64,000 nt of DNA from Bacteroidaceae bacterium (GTDB lineage Bacteria; Bacteroidota; Bacteroidia; Bacteroidales; Bacteroidaceae): contig JAFWXS010000047.1 of the NCBI GenBank assembly GCA_017517925.1, forward strand, positions 2,864-66,863. Reading direction: 5' to 3'. A program made the position numbers and the translations under genes. How positions within the stretch are numbered: the first letter of the stretch is position 1; every line of letters begins with the position of its first letter. Below the pieces are notes generated by a model. That model had not been told where the DNA came from, ran no database searches, and saw only the letters and a list, made by a program, of their open reading frames with translations. Shown in pieces: positions 2,068 through 61,283 of this stretch.

Positions 2068-2227
2068 GTTCTTTTTGAGTTTATTGGTTTATGAGTTGGT
2101 TCTCGTCTTTGTTTCAAAGGCAAAGCTACAGTTTTTTGCTCAAAGATGCAACGCGACTCTTATATTTCGTTAAAAAAACGGTCACTTTGTATCTACTGAC
2201 AGCGATAATGCGTATCTTTGCACCACT

Positions 2228-2443
2228 ATGAAGATATACAAGAAACCTCTGCTGATGTGTCTGGTACTCGTCCTCTATGTCACGGGTATGGCCATCTACT
2301 TCGTGCCGCGCAATCATGAAATGACCTCCACAGGGAAGGCGGTCACCGTGGTGCTGGCCTATGTGCTGGTATTGGCCCTGTGGATAGCCATGCAGTACCG
2401 CGAGAAGTTGCGGCACAAGCGCGGTGATAATGAGGGGAAATAG
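2228..2443 (+). CDS. Small two-TM membrane protein, hypothetical
   Basis: 71 aa with two hydrophobic segments. A TATCTTTG -7 box lies just upstream (around 2211-2218). Confidence 0.5.
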   Translation: MKIYKKPLLMCLVLVLYVTGMAIYFVPRNHEMTSTGKAVTVVLAYVLVLALWIAMQYREKLRHKRGDNEGK

Positions 2444-5105: not shown

Positions 5106-6443
<1,338 letters not shown>

Positions 6444-26737: not shown

Positions 26738-29700
26738 TTACATTACCACAAACTTCTTTCCGTTTTGGATGTAGATACCGGTAGGCAGAGTTTCCCGAGT
26801 TCCACTTACGCGCATACCCTTCAGATTATATATAGGAGTATCGTCAGCATCCATAATGACATTCTCAACACCATCTACTACATCATCCTCAATGAAGAAG
26901 AACTCCTTCCACTGGTTAGCAACCATATAAGCATTGAGGCTTCCTACAGGTACTTTAAGCACACAGCTCCACTTATTAATATCATCAAGAGCCTGTGAGC
27001 CACAAACAGGAGGAGTTACTGCATAACTGGTGATTGCTGTTAGGTTAGTACAATCAGAGAAGGCTTCAGTACCAATTGTTTTCATGCTACGACCAAACGA
27101 GAACCCTTCAAGGCTACTACAACCCGAGAAGGCATAGTTTCCGATACTTTTCACGCCATTACCGATGGTCACATCCTGCAAGTTGGTGCAGCCATAGAAC
27201 TCATTGTCGTAAATCTGCTCCTCACGATCGGTAATTACTATCGTGCGCAGCGAGGTATTGCGATAGAAAGGAGAGTAACCCTCACTGCTCGTGGTGCTAT
27301 AGGTAATCTTACCACCGATATATACCGAGTCGAGCGGGCAATCGGCGAACAACGCTGATGAGCCGTTGCTACCCAAACTTAATGCTGTGATGCGGTCTTC
27401 GATGATGACATCGGCCAACTTGCTGCAGCCAACGAATACATTGTCACCTATCTTCGTCACGGCTTGTGGTATCGTGATTGTGGGGAGGGATGAGCAACCT
27501 TGGAAAGCATAGTTGTTGATGGTGGCTACACCACTGCCTATCTTGACATCCTTCAATGAAGAGCAACCAGAGAAAGCATTTGCTTCCAATATCTTAACCT
27601 TATAGCCAATCTCAACGTTCTCCAATCCTATGCAGCCATTGAACATTGTCCCATTAACCTTAATCAAGCCATTGCCCAATACTGCACTCTTCATACCTCT
27701 ACATTCCTTAAAAGCATAGTTGCCGATTGAGGTTATATTATCGCCAATGATAATCTTTTCCAATCCGCAATTGGCAAAGGTATATTCCTTCACATTCTTC
27801 AGTCCATCGCCTATCACCGCATTCTTCATCACTGTGCAACCATAGAAGCAATACGTACCTACCGACTTTACAGAATTGGGGATTACGATTTCTTGCAAAC
27901 TTGTACATCCGCGGAACGCATCATTGCCCAATGAAGTGACCTTATCGCCCAATGTCGCCGACTTCAATGAAACGCAGTCGTAGAAAGCTGAACTATTAAC
28001 GGCACCTGTATTAGCAACAATGGCCGTTTCCAAAGCACCGCAACCACGGAAAGACTTATCGCCTACATATCCAACATTAGATATATCCAGTGACTTGATT
28101 CCATCGCAATCATAAAATGCTTGGCTTTCGATATTTCCTTGGTTTGAGATTGTAGCAGCCAACATTCCATCGCAATCATAGAATGCCTGACTTCCCACAT
28201 TGCCTTCGTTAGAAATCTCTACACTTTGTACACTATCACAATCGTAAAAAGCGTAATCACCGATATTCCCTTTGTGTGAAATATTCACCTCTTTGATATG
28301 CTTGTTCCCATAGAACGTGTATGGCATCACCTCCTTCACAGTCATGGCAATACCCTTGAACGAGGCCGTCTCGCTGACGTTAATCGACTCTGCAGTACTA
28401 TCGTATGCACAATCAATCGCATGACAAGTGCGCTCCGATGGACTTACGGGCACATACTTCACCCCATCCACCTCGAACATGCTGCTCAGGTAGGGATATA
28501 CTTTTACATTGCTAACTCTTGTATACAGGTCGTTAGCCACATAGTTGATGCTTCCCTGAGCATTGGCATAGCCCGTAGGGGGCGTATTGGTCAGCCAAAT
28601 GACCTTTTCGGGAGTACTGAATGCACCGTTGCCAATGGACAGTACGCCACTGCCTATAGTTACAGAATACAAGCTGCTGCAATTATAGAAAGCCTTGTCT
28701 CCAATGCTCGTCACGCCCTCGGGGATGGTGATGGAGGTGAGGCTGCTGCAATTTTGGAAAGTATATTCTTCGATGCTCGTCACGCCCTCGGGAATGTTAA
28801 TGGCCTTGAGGCTGCTGCAACCAGAGAAAGCATACTCGCCAATACTCGCCACACCCTCGGGGATGGTGATGGCGGTAAGGCTGCTGCAAGAATAGAAAGC
28901 GCAATCTCCGATTTTATAATTCTCCCCATTGTAACTATCCGGCAATACGATTTCGGTATCATTGCCTATGTAGTTCACTAATGAATAAATGCCATTGGAA
29001 GTATAGAATTGATAGTCACCAACAGTGGTAAGTTCACCTCCTTGATATACTGCTTTTGCAAAATAGGCGACATTGCCATAGTTGCTTGAGCCTTTAGATA
29101 ATGACAGATTGGAATAGTTGATCACTTTATAGAGGCTGCTGCAACCACTGAAAGCAATGCTTCCAATGCTCGTCACGCCCTCGGGGATGGTGATGGTGGC
29201 GAGGCTGCTGCAATCACTGAAAGCAATGCTTCCAATGCTCGTCACGCTCTCGGGGATGGTGATGGCGGTGAGGCTGCTGCAATTAGAGAAAGTATAGCTT
29301 TCAATGCTCGTCACGCCCTCGGGGATGGTGATGGCGGTGAGGCTGCTACAATCAGAGAAAGCATACTCTCCAATGCTCGTCACACCCTCGGGGAGGATGA
29401 TGGAGGTGAGGCTGCTACAATCAAAGAAAGCATACTCTCCAATGCTCGTCACGCTCTCGGGGAGGGTGATGGCGGTGAGGCTGCTGCAATCACGGAAAGC
29501 AAAACTTCCAATACTCGTCACATTATCACCAATGGTTAGAGTTGTCAACTTTCCTTTGTTATAGAACGGAGAATAGCCATAAAAGCTACCGCTACTGTAA
29601 CTCAAGTTACGTCCCAAGTAAACCTCTTCTAACGGGCAGTCATAGAACAGACCTTCGCCAGTACTAATGCTATAATAATAATAGTTATATCCCAACGATA

Positions 29701-30070
29701 AGGTTGTGTTGCCATCCTCGATGATGACTTTCTTGAGAGCGGTACAATTGCCAAAAGCATAGTTTCCAATGCTCGTCACGCTCTCGGGGATGGTGATGGC
29801 GGTGAGGCTGCTGCAACCATCGAAAGCCCTCTCTCCAATGCTCGTCACACGATACGTCTTGCTATTATAGGTGACGGTGGTGGGGAGGGCGATGGAGCCG
29901 GAGTAATCTTCGTTGCTGTACGAATTTCCCTTGAAGGTCACACCGACCGTGCGCGCAGCTTCAGAGGTGATGTTGTAGTAGATACCCTCTACCGAAAAAT
30001 CATGTGCACTTACCGTGAGGCTGCACAATAGCGTGGCTATCGTGGTCAGCCAAAGTTTAAATGTTTTCAT
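26738..30070 (-). CDS. BspA-type leucine-rich-repeat (LRR_5) surface protein with a T9SS C-terminal sorting domain
   Basis: 1110 aa with a signal peptide. It carries dozens of ~23-aa units (SLTAITIPEGVTSIGxYAFxxCSSL). The C-terminus (IYNLKGMRV...GIYIQNGKKFVVM) looks like a Por secretion tail. Confidence 0.9.
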   Translation of the reverse strand: MKTFKLWLTTIATLLCSLTVSAHDFSVEGIYYNITSEAARTVGVTFKGNSYSNEDYSGSIALPTTVTYNSKTYRVTSIGERAFDGCSSLTAITIPESVTSIGNYAFGNCTALKKVIIEDGNTTLSLGYNYYYYSISTGEGLFYDCPLEEVYLGRNLSYSSGSFYGYSPFYNKGKLTTLTIGDNVTSIGSFAFRDCSSLTAITLPESVTSIGEYAFFDCSSLTSIILPEGVTSIGEYAFSDCSSLTAITIPEGVTSIESYTFSNCSSLTAITIPESVTSIGSIAFSDCSSLATITIPEGVTSIGSIAFSGCSSLYKVINYSNLSLSKGSSNYGNVAYFAKAVYQGGELTTVGDYQFYTSNGIYSLVNYIGNDTEIVLPDSYNGENYKIGDCAFYSCSSLTAITIPEGVASIGEYAFSGCSSLKAINIPEGVTSIEEYTFQNCSSLTSITIPEGVTSIGDKAFYNCSSLYSVTIGSGVLSIGNGAFSTPEKVIWLTNTPPTGYANAQGSINYVANDLYTRVSNVKVYPYLSSMFEVDGVKYVPVSPSERTCHAIDCAYDSTAESINVSETASFKGIAMTVKEVMPYTFYGNKHIKEVNISHKGNIGDYAFYDCDSVQSVEISNEGNVGSQAFYDCDGMLAATISNQGNIESQAFYDCDGIKSLDISNVGYVGDKSFRGCGALETAIVANTGAVNSSAFYDCVSLKSATLGDKVTSLGNDAFRGCTSLQEIVIPNSVKSVGTYCFYGCTVMKNAVIGDGLKNVKEYTFANCGLEKIIIGDNITSIGNYAFKECRGMKSAVLGNGLIKVNGTMFNGCIGLENVEIGYKVKILEANAFSGCSSLKDVKIGSGVATINNYAFQGCSSLPTITIPQAVTKIGDNVFVGCSKLADVIIEDRITALSLGSNGSSALFADCPLDSVYIGGKITYSTTSSEGYSPFYRNTSLRTIVITDREEQIYDNEFYGCTNLQDVTIGNGVKSIGNYAFSGCSSLEGFSFGRSMKTIGTEAFSDCTNLTAITSYAVTPPVCGSQALDDINKWSCVLKVPVGSLNAYMVANQWKEFFFIEDDVVDGVENVIMDADDTPIYNLKGMRVSGTRETLPTGIYIQNGKKFVVM
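28690..29830. repeat. Near-identical ~69-bp DNA repeats encoding consecutive LRR units
   Basis: Repeated strings such as ccaatgctcgtcacgccctcggggatggtgatggcggtgaggctgctgcaa occur many times. Confidence 0.85.
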
Positions 30071-30267
30071 TGTTGTTTGTATTTAAAATTAGGGATAAAA
30101 ATTCTTTCCATAGTGTTTAAAACAAGTTCCTCATTGCTTTCTTCATATAGAAATTTTCCGTCTTCATACGATAATAGGCCTGTTTGTAACAATTCTTCCT
30201 CGAATTTCTGAAGCTTATCGGGGCTAATCTGTTCTATAATGAACATGATGGATAACTGTTTCTTCAT
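30067..30267 (-). CDS. Small acidic hypothetical protein (66 aa)
   Basis: Its start and stop make ATGA overlaps with both neighbours (30264-30267 and 30067-30070). It is very AT-rich and has no signal peptide. Confidence 0.55.
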   Translation of the reverse strand: MKKQLSIMFIIEQISPDKLQKFEEELLQTGLLSYEDGKFLYEESNEELVLNTMERIFIPNFKYKQQ

Positions 30268-30716
30268 AATTCATTTACATTGTTATTTATTATGTTTATA
30301 AGCTCCATAAACAGATTGTAATCCATGGCTCCTCTAGCAGAAAATGATGTAGGTTTAACAGTAGAATAATCTGCAATGATTATCCGTTGGTCTTCCCTAA
30401 AAATTAGTCCGTGCGCAATGGAGTTACGCAAATGTGATAAAAATGATAGGACTTTATCCTTATTTTTAGATTTAGTGAAACAAATTTTATTTTTGAATGT
30501 ACTCAAGTCTACTTTTTGGATTTCCCTTAACCCTGTTTTCGATAGTTCTAAATTCCCAAGAAATAAGGGAAGAATGTGTACTAATTGAGGATGACAACGA
30601 TATACATCTTCTAAAGCATAGAAAAACCCAAATCCGCCCTTTTCATACATACAGATAAAACGATAAAGATCCTTTACCTCATCTTTTGTAAAGCCATTGA
30701 TTTCTTCTTGTTTCAT
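30264..30716 (-). CDS. Hypothetical 150-aa protein with an R-x4-H (HEPN-like) motif
   Basis: The motif LSHLRNSIAHGLIF (R97...H102, nt 30411-30428) matches the HEPN Rx4-6H / RNxxAH signature. The gene is AT-rich, cytoplasmic in type, and first in the three-gene unit. Confidence 0.6.
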   Translation of the reverse strand: MKQEEINGFTKDEVKDLYRFICMYEKGGFGFFYALEDVYRCHPQLVHILPLFLGNLELSKTGLREIQKVDLSTFKNKICFTKSKNKDKVLSFLSHLRNSIAHGLIFREDQRIIIADYSTVKPTSFSARGAMDYNLFMELINIINNNVNEL

Positions 30717-30801: not shown

Positions 30802-30843
30802 AAAAAAGACGTGGGAGAAACTTTCTTGCTTATCCCAATCGTC
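30802..30843 (-). terminator. Intrinsic terminator at the 3' end of structured-RNA copy 1
   Basis: The RNA reads GACG-AUU-GGGAUAAGC-AAGAAA-GUUUCUCCC-A-CGUC followed by UUUUUU. Confidence 0.6.
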
Positions 30844-31225
30844 CGGCCTTCGCATTGCCTATGTACAAGGATAAGCAACTCAGCCAGCCCACGCCGTGCG
30901 GTTTATAAACAACCATCGCCTATGGCACTGCGCGAGATTTTTCACTTCGTTCAAAATGACAAATTTGTTCAGAATGACAAAGCGAGGCCTCGCGGCCATA
31001 GGTTAGGGGTAATAAACGCCCGAAGTGGACGCTTCGTTGCGGTATCTTCTTGTACATAATCAAAGTTGCGAAGTTTGACGATCAGAAGATAACGTTCAGA
31101 AAACGTCCTTTTCCTGCTCCTCGGCGAGGCTCGGTGCTGACGCGAAGTCTGCGGTGAGCGATGCGCTCTCAAAGCACGGAATCCAATATGTCTTGACCCA
31201 CCCATCCCTTGCGAGCTGGCTGAAT
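30802..31225 (-). ncRNA. Candidate structured noncoding RNA or cis-regulatory leader, copy 1 (~420 nt), family unknown
   Basis: It has its own TAnnTTTG box upstream, a terminator at the 3' end, no credible ORF, and a diverged paralog at 60686-60978 that keeps the same helices. Confidence 0.6.
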
Positions 31226-31230
31226 CGCAG

Positions 31231-31238
31231 CAAATGTA
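31231..31238 (-). promoter_or_regulatory. -7 box TACATTTG for structured-RNA copy 1
   Basis: Exact TAnnTTTG match on the minus strand. I did not find a clean -33 TTTG at the canonical spacing. Confidence 0.45.
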
Positions 31239-31299: not shown

Positions 31300-31607
31300 C
31301 CTTGCTTTTCCCCTACGGGCCAGCGACCTAAAGGTTCGGGCGGCGAACACGTTTCACGGGAAATTCATGGAAATTCATGTTTTAAACGCAAACCGAAGTT
31401 CGCATGAAACAAAAAGCTGTGGGGAACTTGAATATTTTTATAATACGTTTCCCTGCGCGGTAGTTAGTGAGGTATTCCGCGGTAATTAGCGAGGTACACC
31501 GCGATAGTTAGCGAGGCATTCCGCGGTAGTTAGCGAGGTATACCGCGATAGTGTCATCCAGAACGAAGTGAACCTTTAGGTCGCTGGCCCGTAGGGGAAA
31601 AGCAAGG
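31300..31607. repeat. Perfect 38-bp inverted repeat (31300-31337 / 31570-31607) enclosing 232 bp; MITE-like or cruciform element
   Basis: CCTTGCTTTTCCCCTACGGGCCAGCGACCTAAAGGTTC and its exact reverse complement. Confidence 0.9.
31456..31553. repeat. Tandem array of 4.5 copies of the 22-bp unit CGCGRTARTTAGYGAGGYAYWC
   Basis: The units lie at 31456-31477, 31478-31499, 31500-31521, 31522-31543, plus a partial unit at 31544-31553. Confidence 0.9.
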
Positions 31608-39772: not shown

Positions 39773-39804
39773 TTTGGCAGTTCGTTCGGCTTGCACTATC
39801 TTTG
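39773..39804 (+). promoter_or_regulatory. Candidate promoter (-33 TTTG, 20-nt spacer, -7 TATCTTTG) about 470 nt upstream of the lipoprotein pair
   Basis: TTTG lies at 39773-39776 and TATCTTTG at 39797-39804. The hairpin CCGAGG-GGAGAAAT-CCTCGG follows at 39811-39830. Confidence 0.4.
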
Positions 39805-40281
39805 CAGCATCCGAGGGGAGAAATCCTCGGTTCAAGAATGCGTTTCTTGCTTTATCCTTTTTATCGAAATCTGGAAAATTTCAAACAACAGAGGGATGGA
39901 GACAATGCAACGCTCATTCTGTTTGTATATCCCATGTACAGCCCCTGCTGTACCCTACGAGGTATATACGACAGCGTGGGGTATTTGTTTCTCAGTTCAT
40001 TTCTGTTGTAGGTTTTCCAGAGCCTGATAAAAGATGAGCGCGACAAGTCTCTACGCTTTTCTTGCATCTGTTAATCAAGCACAAAATTTATTAACGCTGA
40101 TTTCGGGAGACTTATAAGCAATAAAGAGGGGTAAATCTCTAATAAGTCCTACGATTATGATGTACGCGAACTTTTTCCTTCGCGTCACATATTCCTCTAT
40201 GCATTGTAGCATGCCAGCACATCTTATCAATTAATACATAACATCTACTACTTAATTACTAACCATTTAATTTTATTTATT

Positions 40282-40941
40282 ATGAAAAAAGCTTTTTTAC
40301 TGACAATCGCTTTGGTTCTATCGCTATCTTGCTCAGCTCAGTTACTCGGCAAAGTAAAAACAATTAATGTTGTGCCTGACAAGGCAAAAATTATTATGGG
40401 CGGTGCTGAGGTAGGTCAGGGCTCGTATAGTCTGAATATGGGTCGTCAGGACTATGTTATGCTACGATTAACTTGCCCGGGCTATGTGGACCGTGTTGTG
40501 CGTGTCTATCGCAATGATAAGCGTAATGCGATAAGTTTTACGCTCGAAGAGGATGAGTCATTCTCTGCATCTGAGGCAAATTCCGACTTGGCAAATAAGT
40601 ATATGACCGTAACTGTTCGTGAGGGTCTAACATCAGATGTTGTATGGAAACGTCTTATCCTTACTATTTCGGATCTCTTTCCCAACCTCGAAGTTAACGA
40701 CAAAGAGGCTGGCTGGATTCGCAGTGCATGGGAGGTTGAGCGTTTTGCCTATGTGACGGTAAGAACACGCATAGAAATTAAGGAGGTCATGGGATTTGAC
40801 ACCCCGCGTTACAGAGTACGTTTGCAGTCCGAGATAGCAAGTAACGAGTGCGGTACACATGACGAGTGTTACAAAGCATGGGACAGAGTGCTCAAAACAT
40901 ACATCGAGAGTATAACCGACTTGATTAGTTCTATACAATAA
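40282..40941 (+). CDS. Hypothetical lipoprotein (PEGA-like N-terminal region)
   Basis: 219 aa with the lipoprotein signal MKKAFLLTIALVLSLSC. The gene is AT-rich. Confidence 0.7.
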   Translation: MKKAFLLTIALVLSLSCSAQLLGKVKTINVVPDKAKIIMGGAEVGQGSYSLNMGRQDYVMLRLTCPGYVDRVVRVYRNDKRNAISFTLEEDESFSASEANSDLANKYMTVTVREGLTSDVVWKRLILTISDLFPNLEVNDKEAGWIRSAWEVERFAYVTVRTRIEIKEVMGFDTPRYRVRLQSEIASNECGTHDECYKAWDRVLKTYIESITDLISSIQ

Positions 40942-53353: not shown

Positions 53354-54124
53354 TTAAGTTTCAGGTGAATAATGAATTTCTACTTTCTCCTCGGCCTTAT
53401 CATCCACATAGATAGGAGCGTGCGTTTTTCGATATTCGGCATAGTGCTCATTCAGTTGGGATGCAAACAACTGCAACTGAGCCGAGGTATAGAGGCCTGG
53501 TTCACTACCGTTGCTGAACCGGTCGGCTTGTGGCCAATCGGTAAGCCCGAGAACATCTATGGCAAACTGATACTTGCTATTGCTATACACACCAAAATAG
53601 TAGGGCCAGTGTGCGGGTCTCATCAAGATGTCACCCCACGAGAGACGGAAATGTATCGCATCGGCATTTCCTGCTGCCAGTTCTCCACCATTGGTTATCT
53701 CCAGATAAAGGCTCACGCTTTGTACCTTGGTGTCTTCCGTACGCTTAATGAGTATCGGCAAGTAGCCTTTATACTCATGGGCAGGGATTACTCCATTTAG
53801 AATCTCATAGTGCGTAGGACTCACCGCTGTCGTACTATCGGGAACGGCTATCGCACAGAATGTGCGATCATGGTCGGCAAGGCGTCCCATAAGCCAAGTT
53901 TCAATGTATATGGTATCTTCCATCAACATAGAGGGCTGAAGCGCAAACGAATAATTCTTCTCCCATACGTTCTTCTCTACGGACAATACTTCTTCCGTTT
54001 CATGAAAGTATACACGATCGTCCAATGCGTATACCAACCTCTCGTTCTCCTCGCATGCCATGAATATACTTAGCGCGCAAGCAATGCAGATGGTATATAT
54101 ACCTTTTAATCCTCGTTGTTTCAT
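53354..54124 (-). CDS. DUF4843-like lipoprotein (PUL accessory)
   Basis: The internal ATG at 54124 gives the lipoprotein signal MKQRGLKGIYTICIACALSIFMAC. It lies directly after the SusD gene. Confidence 0.65.
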   Translation of the reverse strand: MKQRGLKGIYTICIACALSIFMACEENERLVYALDDRVYFHETEEVLSVEKNVWEKNYSFALQPSMLMEDTIYIETWLMGRLADHDRTFCAIAVPDSTTAVSPTHYEILNGVIPAHEYKGYLPILIKRTEDTKVQSVSLYLEITNGGELAAGNADAIHFRLSWGDILMRPAHWPYYFGVYSNSKYQFAIDVLGLTDWPQADRFSNGSEPGLYTSAQLQLFASQLNEHYAEYRKTHAPIYVDDKAEEKVEIHYSPET

Positions 54125-54134
54125 AGTGTCCTTA

Positions 54135-55643
54135 TTATTTCTCGTTTTCTCTTTCACCGAACTCGACCTCGTCATCGGGCAATGGGAAGGTATAGTTGGG
54201 GGCTACATAAGTCGTGCTGATAGAACTACCCACAGCAGTTTCTATAGGGATGCGTTCGTAGTTCAATCTCTTGTAATAGTAATATATCTGACCTTCACAT
54301 ACGAATTCTTTCAGGTACTCCTTGCGTATTTCCTCGTAAGCCTCCTCCTTTGTTAAATTCAGCGGTAGGTCGTCGATTAGGTTTCTATGACTGCGCACAG
54401 TATTCAGATGACGGATACAAGATTCAATGTTTTGGTTGGCAACCAATTCACACTCTGCAGCAATGTAATATGCTTCTGAAAGTCTCATCAAGGGAATTCG
54501 ATGCATATATCTCGTGTTCCCGCTCATAGGTTGCATATATTTCGTGTTGTATCTCTTTCCGTCCAGTTCCTTGTTTTGGTAGGCATAGCGATAGTCTCCG
54601 AAATATCCCGTATTGAAAAGTTCATAGATGGCATGGTAACTTGTTTCATTCATGATGAGCGACATCTGATTACTTGATGTGAAATAAGACGAATATCTCG
54701 TTCTCAAGTCACTGTCATAGAGCGCAAACACCAATTCCTCGGCAAAGATTCGATTACGCTGTTCATCTTCTGCCACATTTATCTCCTCGTCGGGGGTCCA
54801 ATAGAAAGTGCCCTGTTGTATTACAGATTCTGCAGCAACCAATGCCTCATCGTGCAATCCCATATAGAGATATATTCGAGCCTGCAACAGTTTGACCCCA
54901 TAATAGTTCAACTTGAAGGTACGATCCCTCTCATAGTTGACATCGGCATTTTCAACCTCCTTCTCCGTAGAGGTGTTGCCTTCACCGACAATCACCGGAT
55001 CTCGCGAGAGTTCATGCTCTGCCACAGCCAGATCTTCGAGGCATAAGCCAAGAGCCTCCTCCACAGTGCTGAGTGGGGTGACATCGGCCGTGACACTCTT
55101 CATGTATGGGATGCATTTGTCATTCTTGTCCTTGGCATAAGATGCTCCCCACAATTTGGTGAGGTCAAAATGCAAGAATGCTCTCAAGGCATATGCTTCA
55201 CCACGAATAAGATGATAGTTGCGTCCTGTGAATATTGTGCTATCAGCCTCGTCAATGTGCACAATCAACTCATTGTCATTGCTTAAAGCCGTGTAGGCCT
55301 TACTCCAGATTGAGTTTATGCGCTGTTCACATTCAGCATTCTCATAATCAAATGCTGCATCGTACTTATAGGTGTTATTCGTTGCCATTCCGGTATAGTA
55401 CTGCCCCATGGCGTCCAGCATACCGAAGGTGAGTTCCTTGCCATAGAGGGACTCATCAGTCAGCAAGAGATATACTCCCGTCAGTGCATCCTTATACCCT
55501 TGTTCCGTACTGAAGTTGTCATCAGACTTGATTTGTGTTTTAGGGCTCACGTCAAGCCAATCTTCGCATCCTGTCAAGCAGAGCGATACGAGCAGCAAGC
55601 CATAGGATAAGATATTCTTCTTGATGTTCTGCATAGTTGTCAT
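54135..55643 (-). CDS. RagB/SusD-family nutrient-binding outer-membrane lipoprotein
   Basis: 502 aa with a lipoprotein signal (LCLTGCEDW) and a TPR-like SusD pattern. It lies downstream of the SusC gene. Confidence 0.9.
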   Translation of the reverse strand: MTTMQNIKKNILSYGLLLVSLCLTGCEDWLDVSPKTQIKSDDNFSTEQGYKDALTGVYLLLTDESLYGKELTFGMLDAMGQYYTGMATNNTYKYDAAFDYENAECEQRINSIWSKAYTALSNDNELIVHIDEADSTIFTGRNYHLIRGEAYALRAFLHFDLTKLWGASYAKDKNDKCIPYMKSVTADVTPLSTVEEALGLCLEDLAVAEHELSRDPVIVGEGNTSTEKEVENADVNYERDRTFKLNYYGVKLLQARIYLYMGLHDEALVAAESVIQQGTFYWTPDEEINVAEDEQRNRIFAEELVFALYDSDLRTRYSSYFTSSNQMSLIMNETSYHAIYELFNTGYFGDYRYAYQNKELDGKRYNTKYMQPMSGNTRYMHRIPLMRLSEAYYIAAECELVANQNIESCIRHLNTVRSHRNLIDDLPLNLTKEEAYEEIRKEYLKEFVCEGQIYYYYKRLNYERIPIETAVGSSISTTYVAPNYTFPLPDDEVEFGERENEK

Positions 55644-60685: not shown

Positions 60686-60721
60686 AAAAAAGCGGGGCAC
60701 CCCACTTGCTGCTTATCCCGC
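60686..60721 (-). terminator. Intrinsic terminator at the 3' end of structured-RNA copy 2
   Basis: The RNA reads GCGGG-AUAA-GCA-(GCAAGUGGGG)-UGC-CCCGC followed by UUUUUU. Confidence 0.55.
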
Positions 60722-60978
60722 GTCCAAGGCTCTCGCATTGCCTAAACCAGTCTGGATAAGCAACACAGAAGCCCACGCCGATATGTATAATATACCACAC
60801 TCCACATCCGTGGAGATTCTCAGTGGCAATTAACACATCACGTAGACATCTACCGTTGCTCTGCTTTGACTGGTTTCTTAGAATTTGCGAGATTCTGGAT
60901 CGCCAAAGACAAAACGTCAAGTAAACGTCTTTCTCATTATGTATACCGCCCACCCTCGAAGCCCGTCGGGATGAACGA
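60686..60978 (-). ncRNA. Candidate structured noncoding RNA or cis-regulatory leader, copy 2 (~290 nt), family unknown
   Basis: It has a canonical promoter (60984-61014) and a terminator, no credible ORF, and it is collinear with copy 1 (30802-31225) with compensatory helix changes. Confidence 0.65.
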
Positions 60979-60983
60979 TGTGG

Positions 60984-61014
60984 CAAAAGTAATGCAATTT
61001 GAAGAAAAAACAAA
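60984..61014 (-). promoter_or_regulatory. Bacteroidetes-type promoter: -33 TTTG, 19-nt spacer, -7 TACTTTTG
   Basis: The minus strand reads CATTTG-(19 nt)-TACTTTTG. It lies downstream of the tRNA-Asn terminator, so it starts an independent transcript. Confidence 0.55.
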
Positions 61015-61110: not shown

Positions 61111-61113
61111 TTG

Positions 61114-61187
61114 CTCTTCGTCTTGGACTTGAACCAAGGACCCTCTGATTAACAGTCAGATGCTCTAACCGACTGAGCTAACGAAGA
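61114..61187 (-). tRNA. tRNA-Asn (anticodon GTT), copy 1
   Basis: The reverse complement is TCTTCGTTAGCTCAGTCGGTTAGAGCATCTGACTGTTAATCAGAGGGTCCTTGGTTCAAGTCCAAGACGAAGAG, which folds as a canonical cloverleaf. Confidence 0.95.
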
Positions 61188-61209
61188 ATATTCTAACCCT
61201 TAAATCTTG

Positions 61210-61283
61210 CTCTTCGTCTTGGACTTGAACCAAGGACCCTCTGATTAACAGTCAGATGCTCTAACCGACTGAGCTAACGAAGA
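61210..61283 (-). tRNA. tRNA-Asn (anticodon GTT), copy 2 (identical sequence)
   Basis: The same 74-nt sequence, 22 nt upstream of copy 1. Confidence 0.95.

Follow-up and report, generated by a model that had tools for sequence, protein, structure and literature searches.

What is transcribed from a gap of more than 1 kb that seems to hold no gene? The DNA analysed here, hereafter the window, is a stretch of 64 000 nucleotides (nt) from a Bacteroidaceae bacterium (GenBank assembly GCA_017517925.1, contig JAFWXS010000047.1, positions 2,864 to 66,863 of the forward strand), and the gap lies upstream of an operon for a leucine-rich repeat (LRR) protein that is read on the minus strand. An earlier examination of the bare DNA letters (the sequence-only reading) had found no credible open reading frame (ORF) in this gap, rightly, since the ORFs present are short and unconserved. 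At 30802-31238 of the minus strand it placed instead a structured RNA with its own promoter and terminator, which it took for a stand-alone noncoding RNA gene tied to a HEPN-like/LRR operon. Here we report that this RNA belongs to a large, widespread and multicopy family of gut Bacteroidales that is absent from Rfam 15. Judging from sequence comparison and modelled folds, its members are probably cis-acting 5' leaders that would work as conditional transcription attenuators of the genes behind them, among which surface, capsule and defence genes are frequent.

A multicopy RNA family of gut Bacteroidales

The extent of the family was assessed with two patterns drawn from different parts of the RNA. 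Genomes, one per species, were scanned for exact blocks of the 3' domain (GGCGTGGGCT N15-40 TAGGCAATGCGA), and metagenome contigs for blocks of the central domain only (GGCGTTTA N50-80 AGCAACGRTAGATG), which leaves the 3' domain unconstrained. Counts from both scans are lower bounds, and the ratios given below for the two sets are those among the matches listed. The genome scan yielded at least 119 leader-RNA loci, and the independent central-domain pattern at least 120 in metagenome contigs, so that homologs clearly exist beyond the source genome. Nearly all genome carriers listed are metagenome-assembled genomes (MAGs) of gut or rumen Bacteroidales, and the taxa represented are Paludibacteraceae, Prevotella, Paraprevotella, Muribaculaceae, Parabacteroides, Bacteroides, Phocaeicola, Alistipes and Barnesiella. 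Several assemblies carry at least two to three loci each among the matches listed (at least three per MAG), and three copies lie within the 64-kb window itself. The nearest relatives of the copy in the gap (copy 1), again among the matches listed, are the Paludibacteraceae MAG loci L041 and L095. When 60 loci were searched with R1, a covariance model of the 3' domain, almost no further diverged copies were found in their 8-kb flanks.

The family is also present in cultured strains. BLASTN located the leader RNA on two plasmids of about 95 kb, one of Phocaeicola dorei CL06T03C03 (NZ_CP072250.1, about 53875-54185; positions 5937-6245 of locus L120) and one of P. vulgatus (NZ_CP096966.1, 34616-34859), where it is unannotated and lies 67 nt 5' of a co-oriented coding sequence for a hypothetical protein. 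The phage and viral collections INPHARED and IMG/VR contained no match to the leader RNA, and a phage origin of the family was rejected on these grounds.

The sequence-only reading did not recognise the family, and neither did Rfam 15. At gathering thresholds the whole window matched two tRNAs only; at E <= 10, copy 1 had no match, and copy 2 and the canonical member L036 had chance-level matches only. Among 18 homolog loci searched at gathering thresholds, the sole match was a separate cobalamin riboswitch in L081, and because this genuine riboswitch was detected, the search of the homolog loci evidently worked. The riboswitch (2164-2370, plus strand, 102.5 bits) lies about 0.5-0.7 kb from the family member on a Phocaeicola plebeius MAG contig. 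Text searches of the literature with motif strings and for Bacteroidales structured RNAs, riboswitch candidates, UpxY leaders and FopS found no such leader, although catalogues of unnamed motifs, e.g. the human-microbiome screen PMC8040213, might hold fragments of it.

Conserved architecture and a bipartite pseudoknot

To describe the fold, about 100 unique members were extracted by anchors, and their columns were scanned for mutual information and for stacked Watson-Crick pairs. This extraction replaced RNAalifold on whole-length MAFFT alignments, which, owing to indels and pseudoknots, yielded long-range structures that were poor or spurious. Members share one layout: a promoter box, a folded RNA of 270-430 nt and, in nearly every member, a hairpin followed by a U-run. 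Most of the homologs examined have the box, TAnnTTTG, immediately 5' of the RNA (87 of 114 within 330 nt), and 98 unique members were also examined for it. Thus, the promoter, the terminator and the strand-specific structured RNA claimed for copy 1 are borne out across the family.

The strongest signal in the RNA is a bipartite long-range pseudoknot of about 15 bp, which joins the region of the central hairpin to the interior of the 3' hairpin. In its first part, K1, the loop of a hairpin named B3 pairs with the loop of a GGC...GCC mini-hairpin (UCUCGCA/UGCGAGA), and in its second part, K2, the 7-9 nt directly 5' of B3 pair with the 7-9 nt directly 3' of the mini-hairpin. Pairing in K2 reaches 93.7% (58.4% in shuffles), 278 cells have changed on both sides (84 in shuffles), and four to six standard pair types occur at every one of its eight positions. 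For K1 the corresponding values are 99.4% against 91.5% in shuffles, and 69 against 19 cells changed on both sides. In the metagenome set, the duplex of segment X (the K2 5' strand plus hairpin B3) with its counterpart Y lies at z < -2 in 95% of members, with a median of -24.9 kcal/mol, and K1 occurs there in at least ten sequences that are always compensated (UCUAGCA/UGCUAGA, UCUUCCA/UGGAAGA, CCUAGGA/UCCUAGG, UCUGGAAAA/UUUCCAGA and others). The sequence-only reading had called the B3 loop conserved, on the basis of CUUCGCAAC in copy 1 and CUCGCAA in copy 2, which sit on unrelated stems. Its conservation is real, but the loop also base-pairs with the AAUGCGA loop that the same reading had described as part of a separate 3' hairpin.

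Several further helices complete the core. H2 (GGCGU/ACGCU) is 98% paired, and the copy 1 version, GACGU/ACGUU, is a compensated variant with A-U in place of G-C. P3, with a median z of -1.9, is built from many distinct complementary pairs, such as GUUCUGA/UCAGGAC, AUUCUUGAC/GUCAAGGAU and, in copy 1, AUCUUCU/AGAAGAU. The B3 stem is backed by covariation in the anchored member set, and the lower stem of B7, the two-tier 3' hairpin, by five compensated pairs. Finally, the transcript opens with ~20 nt that can pair with a box, B6, and its variable 3' flank to form a closing helix, P1 (mean -22.9 kcal/mol, median z -2.1), which falls below z -1 in 86% of members. The P1 flank covaries (CGUGAA/UUCGCG, UUCAGCC/GGCUGAG, CUCAGUA/AACUGAG), and the B6 box, GGCGUGGGCU, is exact in 80 of the 110 loci where the search pattern had not imposed it. 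The plasmid copy L120 has no obvious 5' strand for P1. Two other candidate pairings, that of the H2 5' strand and loop GCGUUUAYU with GGUAGAUGU and that of AAAAGGCGU with the 3' ACGCUUUUU, were rejected as G-U-rich and inseparable from composition effects.

Across these helices G-U cells outnumber A-C cells by 345 to 64, and the transcribed strand is therefore fixed. The sequence-only reading had seen compensatory changes and tolerated insertions in hairpin tips in its two copies; both are supported, and the compensatory changes recur among some 100 to 200 homologs.

A terminator with competing partners

The hairpin beside the U-run, terminator T (CGUGGRA...UYCCACG plus the U-run), covaries in its own right: it is 88.9% paired, both sides have changed in 77 cells versus 32 in shuffles, and none of 500 shuffles reaches either observed value. 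Its strands have other possible partners as well. The 5' strand CGUGGRA lies directly next to the 3' strand of K2 and overlaps that of B7, while the 3' strand YCCACGC can also pair with B6, and does so in 99.7% of cells (2 of 749 broken). This 3' strand varies by transitions only and can therefore pair with both a covarying local partner and the invariant B6. The named helices are supported by covariation or complementarity statistics, and the terminator is tied into a mutually exclusive set of them.

Constrained folding of five members illustrates the competition. Isolated 3' domains of the canonical members L036, L003 and L001 fold into a hairpin and the local terminator. When the K1/K2 3' strands are blocked, B7 forms and B6 pairs with the T 3' strand beside the U-run. 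When B6 is blocked too, B7 forms and no hairpin remains beside the U-run in L036 and L001, and none reaches the U-run in L003. The terminator was lost only with both K1/K2 and P1 formed, in three of the five members. The minimum-energy fold of isolated 3' domains contains a further hairpin, "hairpin A" (GGGC..GCGUUGYC with GGCAAUGC..GCCY), which could form in nearly all members. Both of its strands are conserved, and the metagenome set holds two compensated cases and several breaks. Hairpin A is thus a possible third, off-state conformation in the folding models, one without covariation support.

Genes downstream of the leader

The position of the RNA relative to genes is narrowly constrained. 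The next ORF lies on the same strand in 91 of the 98 listed genome loci, and its start is usually ~30-100 nt past the U-run; in the metagenome set, 64 next ORFs are on the same strand versus 10 on the opposite one, at a median distance of 62 nt. Upstream genes have mixed orientation. A co-oriented next gene at such a short distance makes a 5' leader likelier than a free-standing small RNA (sRNA).

By contrast with this fixed position, the genes themselves are diverse. The 92 first downstream genes of the listed loci match 49 Pfam and 69 NCBIfam families. In 10 of the 92 the first gene encodes a UpxY-type NusG paralog. Others encode BspA/HupY LRR adhesins, lipoproteins, DUF3575 and OmpH-type envelope proteins, cargo of the type IX secretion system, polysaccharide (capsule) export proteins, UDP-galactopyranose mutase, SusC/D operons, Thoeris ThsA, AbiH and DUF4007 proteins, or small proteins that resemble helix-turn-helix proteins as judged from their N-terminal sequence only. 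Many of the products have N-termini that look like signal peptides under a permissive heuristic.

Proposed mechanism and its alternatives

The fixed distance to the gene, the diversity of the genes and a terminator whose strands take part in mutually exclusive helices therefore favour a cis-acting leader that attenuates transcription. The same features, namely diverse co-oriented genes at short distance and the exclusive helices, speak against the stand-alone noncoding RNA gene tied to one operon that was first envisaged for copy 1, so that of the original interpretation the structured RNA family stands and its status as a separate gene is not supported.

How might such a leader work? Transcription would start at the Bacteroidetes promoter, and the first 270-430 nt would fold into a compact core made of H2, P3 enclosing B3, the AGCAACGGUAGAUG junction, the variable hairpin, B6 GGCGUGGGCU and the two-tier B7. 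Two long-range locks, the K1/K2 pseudoknot and the closing helix P1, would then determine the outcome. With both locks formed, B7 would form and the U-run would be left without a hairpin, as in the three of five folded members above, and polymerase would read into the gene, which begins some 40-100 nt beyond. If either lock failed, a hairpin would form beside the U-run and the transcript would end as an RNA of about 300 nt. Termination could be modulated by a protein, by RNA polymerase or a Nus factor, by a small molecule or by folding kinetics, and the invariant junctions GACAUAUU, AGCAACGGUAGAUG, AUAUCGGCGUGGGCU and UAGGCAAU may provide a binding surface. A kinetic route could involve a local hairpin of the 5' strand with the G-rich GGGUGGG / GGCGGAGGG segment, which appears in subfamily folds. 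That termination is modulated, and by what, are points that we infer.

Several observations weigh against this mechanism. Termination, read-through and the 5' end of the transcript are all features that we infer. The cores of B6 and K1 are fixed by the search pattern in the genome set, and their covariation comes from the metagenome set and copy 3 only. About 14% of members, among them copy 2 of the window and the Phocaeicola plasmid copy, have a weak P1 or none. Moreover, under the double constraint copy 1 retains a 5-bp AU-rich hairpin that involves the U-run, and copy 2 retains a small GC hairpin beside it, and some members may therefore terminate always. ViennaRNA cannot score the pseudoknot, so that the energies of the states are indicative only. 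Finally, the downstream genes are not united by one function, an unusual situation for a metabolite riboswitch.

Of the alternatives, an unconditional cis element survives best, although we regard it as unlikely. The RNA might be a processive antitermination element that modifies RNA polymerase, in the manner of phage HK022 put or Bacillus EAR, or a 5' stabiliser or insulator that permits expression of accessory operons, with a terminator that merely filters misfolded transcripts. It does sit at the start of operons of the kind controlled by antitermination (UpxY/NusG-led capsule loci, 10 of the 92 listed; polysaccharide export; long surface-protein genes; SusC/D), its many invariant unpaired nucleotides could contact a conserved partner such as RNA polymerase, and the variety of the genes is too great for a metabolite signal. 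However, many of the downstream units are single short genes, the three-way competition for the terminator 3' strand resembles decision logic, and there is no similarity to EAR or other Rfam models.

Slightly less likely still is that the members are free-standing genes for trans-acting sRNAs, whose terminated product of about 300 nt would act on other mRNAs or proteins, the downstream gene being a mere neighbour or served by leaky read-through. Nearly all members do have a promoter and a terminator-like 3' end of their own, the fold is compact and stable, and gut Bacteroidales sRNAs of similar size are known, e.g. the 272-nt SrcF of Segatella copri. In copy 2, moreover, P1 is weak, the terminator hairpin is self-contained and the next ATG lies 233 nt away. 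On the other hand, co-orientation with the next gene (91/98 and 64/74 among the matches listed) at a narrow spacing of ~60 nt is unexpected for independent sRNA genes, the terminator strands are common to covarying alternative helices, and no conserved single-stranded seed is evident, as the most variable segments, K1 and K2, pair intramolecularly.

A DNA-level repeat such as the end of a mobile element, a miniature inverted-repeat transposable element (MITE) or a repetitive extragenic palindrome (REP) would account for the multiple copies (three in 64 kb, at least three per MAG), the plasmid locations, and the repeat-like inserts and adjoining 38-nt perfect inverted repeat of copy 1, but it is highly improbable given the orientation fixed relative to genes and promoter, the 345 to 64 excess of G-U over A-C in helices, long-range compensatory pairs with up to four to six pair types per position, the lack of terminal inverted repeats and of an adjoining transposase or recombinase, and the absence of matches in the viral contigs and phage records searched.

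Returning to a conditional leader, a more far-reaching version of it can be considered, to which we give somewhat less than even weight. The family may be an undescribed class of large (~300-nt) leaders that control several tens of operons in each genome of gut and rumen Bacteroidales, those for capsules, surface proteins, SusC/D and phage defence among them, with a two-lock antiterminator and an invariant core that responds to a single global cue, for example a second messenger, a Nus-type factor or RNA polymerase. If so, the leader would be a master switch for cell-surface and accessory genes in the dominant order of the gut microbiota.

The three copies in the window

Copy 1 (30802-31228, minus strand) is a leader RNA of ~425 nt that scores 72.1 bits with model R1. 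Its folding z against dinucleotide shuffles is -5.2, and that of copy 2 is -6.3, in agreement with the structured fold proposed from sequence alone. The features listed there for copy 1, from the promoter box through the hairpin and U6, H2, B3, the variable hairpin and CGGCGUGGGCU to the two-tier 3' hairpin, are all present where they had been placed. The promoter box TACATTTG, a Bacteroidetes -7 element, lies at 31231-31238 on the minus strand, as do all features of copy 1, and places the start at about 31224-31228. The 5' strand of P1, GAUUCAGCCAGCUC (31213-31226), pairs with 30878-30896 as an inverted repeat (-27.8 kcal/mol, z -2.4). Hairpin H2, GGACGUUUUCUGAACGUU (31091-31108, GACGUU/AACGU), is followed by the P3 5' strand AUCUUCU (31084-31090), whose partner AGAAGAU (31044-31050) closes a helix around the K2 5' strand and hairpin B3. 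Segment X (31060-31083) comprises the K2 5' strand GAUCGUC (31077-31083) and hairpin B3 (31060-31078), the loop of which, CUUCGCA (31067-31073), is the K1 5' strand. The conserved junction CGCAACGAAGCGUCC (31027-31041; family consensus AGCAACGGUAGAUGYCC) precedes the variable-length hairpin (30919-31002), which contains a repeat-like insert with two tandem units of 18 nt and corresponds to a 16-nt hairpin in copy 2 (60800-60815).

Toward the 3' end of copy 1, box B6 CGGCGUGGGCU (30886-30896) and its flank (together 30878-30896) form the P1 3' strand and the alternative partner of the terminator 3' strand. The two-tier hairpin B7 (30825-30879) pairs GUUGCUUAUCC (30869-30879) with GGGAUAAGCAAG (30825-30836), and its mini-hairpin GGC-AAUGCGAAG-GCC (30845-30859) holds the K1 3' strand UGCGAAG (30848-30854). 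The K2 3' strand GACGAUU (30837-30843) follows, and then the local terminator T, UGGGA...UCCCA (30802-30837), with its 3' strand UCUCCCACGUC at 30808-30818 and U6 at 30802-30807. Here too, the T 5' strand overlaps the B7 3' strand and adjoins K2.

Copy 1 is longer than the family core of ~290 nt because of two insertions, 31109-31184 and 30919-31002. The first (minus strand, ~85 nt) is structured, lies between the GACAUAUU junction and H2, and is also found in L041 and L095 but missing from most members. Upstream of the copy 1 promoter, at a distance of about 65 nt, is a perfect 38-nt inverted repeat (31300-31337 / 31570-31607), whose two arms are the only such sequences in the window. The arms flank 232 nt with four 22-nt direct repeats, including the segment 31456-31565, and a stretch of 21 nt (31552-31572) shows 86% complementarity to positions 30941-30961 within the copy 1 variable hairpin. 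This element could be a MITE/REP-like module or an invertible segment.

The first gene after copy 1 (30264-30716, minus strand) encodes 150 aa and starts with an ATG 85 nt past the U-run. The only support for its HEPN-like label is sub-threshold Pfam matches (E 0.008). A 66-aa ORF follows, and then a BspA-type LRR protein of 1110 aa (26738-30070, minus strand).

The diverged paralog that had been noted on the same strand is indeed present as copy 2 (60686-60983, minus strand), an RNA of ~298 nt that scores 78.9 bits with R1 behind a promoter box TACUUUUG at 60984-60991. On this strand it has H2 at 60912-60930, B3 at 60880-60896, the junction at 60842-60860, B6 at 60770-60780 (CGGCGUGGGCU), the mini-hairpin at 60728-60742 and U6 at 60686-60691. 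Its K2 strands are GCGAUCCAG (5', 60895-60903) and UUGGACGC (3', 60720-60727), and the pseudoknot pairs GCG(A)UCCAG with CUUGGACGC in K2 and UCUCGCA with UGCGAGA in K1. P1 of copy 2 is weak (z +0.45). A small self-contained GC hairpin, GGGGUGCCCCGC (60692-60703, minus strand), precedes its U-run and persists in constrained folds. In these models termination in copy 2 may be constitutive, which would bring this copy closer to an sRNA gene in its behaviour. It precedes a gene for a secreted protein of 529 aa, with 233 nt to the next ATG, and then a SusC/SusD/DUF4843/PKD/thioredoxin operon. Directly upstream of copy 2 are two tandem, seemingly identical tRNA-Asn(GTT) genes (61113-61283, minus strand), and the terminator after this pair bears a weak resemblance (E 0.01) to the 3' end of Rfam BTnc231.

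To these two copies, both genuine, a third must be added, which the sequence-only reading had missed. The number of copies in the window was determined with the R1 covariance model for the 3' domain and nhmmer profiles for the central domain, and both detect the diverged copy 3 (39805-40063, plus strand; R1, E 0.12; central-domain hidden Markov model, E 3.6e-4). Its promoter box TAUCUUUG (also given as TATCTTTG) lies at 39797-39804 on the plus strand, followed on that strand by the K2 5' strand CUUUUUAUC (39857-39865), hairpin B3 with loop UCUGGAA (39866-39882), the junction (39906-39919), a B6-like CAGCGUGGGGU (39972-39982), the mini-hairpin with UUCCAGA (40011-40024), the K2 3' strand GAUAAAAG (40026-40033), and the terminator 3' strand with its U-rich tail (40049-40063). 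Relative to the canonical sequence, K1 of copy 3 (UCUGGAA/UUCCAGA) carries three compensated base pairs. Copy 3 precedes two small unknown proteins, the next ATG being at 40282 (plus strand).

Significance and comparison with known systems

Bacteroidales dominate the human and ruminant gut, and their capsules, surface proteins, transporters and phage defences decide colonisation, interaction with the immune system and susceptibility to phages. Such genes are mostly known to be controlled through DNA inversion, sigma/anti-sigma pairs, hybrid two-component systems and UpxY/UpxZ. To these, a conserved, structurally elaborate leader RNA that precedes the genes in many copies would add control at the level of RNA, and the family would extend the short list of large structured RNA classes. 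In practical terms, the covariation of K1/K2 is strong enough for a covariance model and a census.

Among regulators of the same bacterial order, the ops leaders of Bacteroides fragilis capsule operons are short, locus-specific pause sites with a pause hairpin, which their cognate UpxY recognises both as DNA and as RNA (Saba et al. 2024, PMC11685472). The leader family resembles UpxY/ops leaders (PMC11685472) in its position between promoter and first gene in capsule loci. In contrast to them, it has a conserved fold of ~300 nt, and a NusG paralog is absent downstream of most listed members and of all three window copies. Identity with a UpxY/ops leader was accordingly rejected, a cognate UpxY coming first in 10 of the 92 listed loci only and after none of the three window copies.

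The FopS/GibS RNAs of B. thetaiotaomicron and SrcF of S. copri are likewise multicopy or abundant RNAs of gut Bacteroidales, with canonical promoters, Rho-independent terminators and links to surface genes or polysaccharide utilization loci. FopS RNAs are ~65-70 nt long and consist of a single-stranded seed and a terminator, and SrcF has 272 nt. Membership in an sRNA group of the FopS/GibS type was rejected because the leader is 270-430 nt long against ~65-70 nt for FopS, is highly paired and pairs its variable segments internally. The SrcF riboprobe primers had no match with four or fewer mismatches in any family locus, a comparison by primers and not by the full SrcF sequence, and primers of other S. 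copri sRNAs did not match family loci either. MITE/REP membership was rejected in turn on the fixed orientation, the G-U/A-C ratio of 345 to 64 and the fixed position of the promoter box.

HK022 put and the Bacillus EAR element are structured RNAs that start long operons for surface polysaccharides or accessory functions and permit read-through of terminators. Unlike these, the leader family is much larger, carries its own terminator in alternative helices and has no sequence or model similarity to them.

In the cobalamin riboswitch (RF00174), also a large 5' leader, the sensing domain touches the expression platform through a long-range kissing contact of loops, and gene expression is decided there. 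Like the leader family, it is abundant in Bacteroidales and often stands before surface or transport genes. The leader family differs in having no RF00174 match, a 15-bp bipartite and hypervariable pseudoknot, no recognised motif resembling the B12 box, and genes unrelated to cobalamin. As in riboswitches generally, there is a covariation-backed domain in the 5' untranslated region and a terminator that excludes, and is excluded by, the helices of that domain; a shared ligand pathway was not found among the 92 listed first genes.

T-box leaders (RF00230) gave no match at E <= 10 for copies 1 and 2 and L036, the specifier loop and T-box sequence not having been searched for separately. Nevertheless, the family shares with attenuators and T-box leaders a strand that joins either a terminator or a competing helix, a position between promoter and first gene, and many paralogs per genome. 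It is unlike them in having no leader peptide and in an antiterminator that needs K1/K2 together with P1 and not one adjacent hairpin. Taken together, the leader is best described as a new, multicopy class of Bacteroidales RNA in which covariation proves a pseudoknot and the strands of the terminator have alternative partners.

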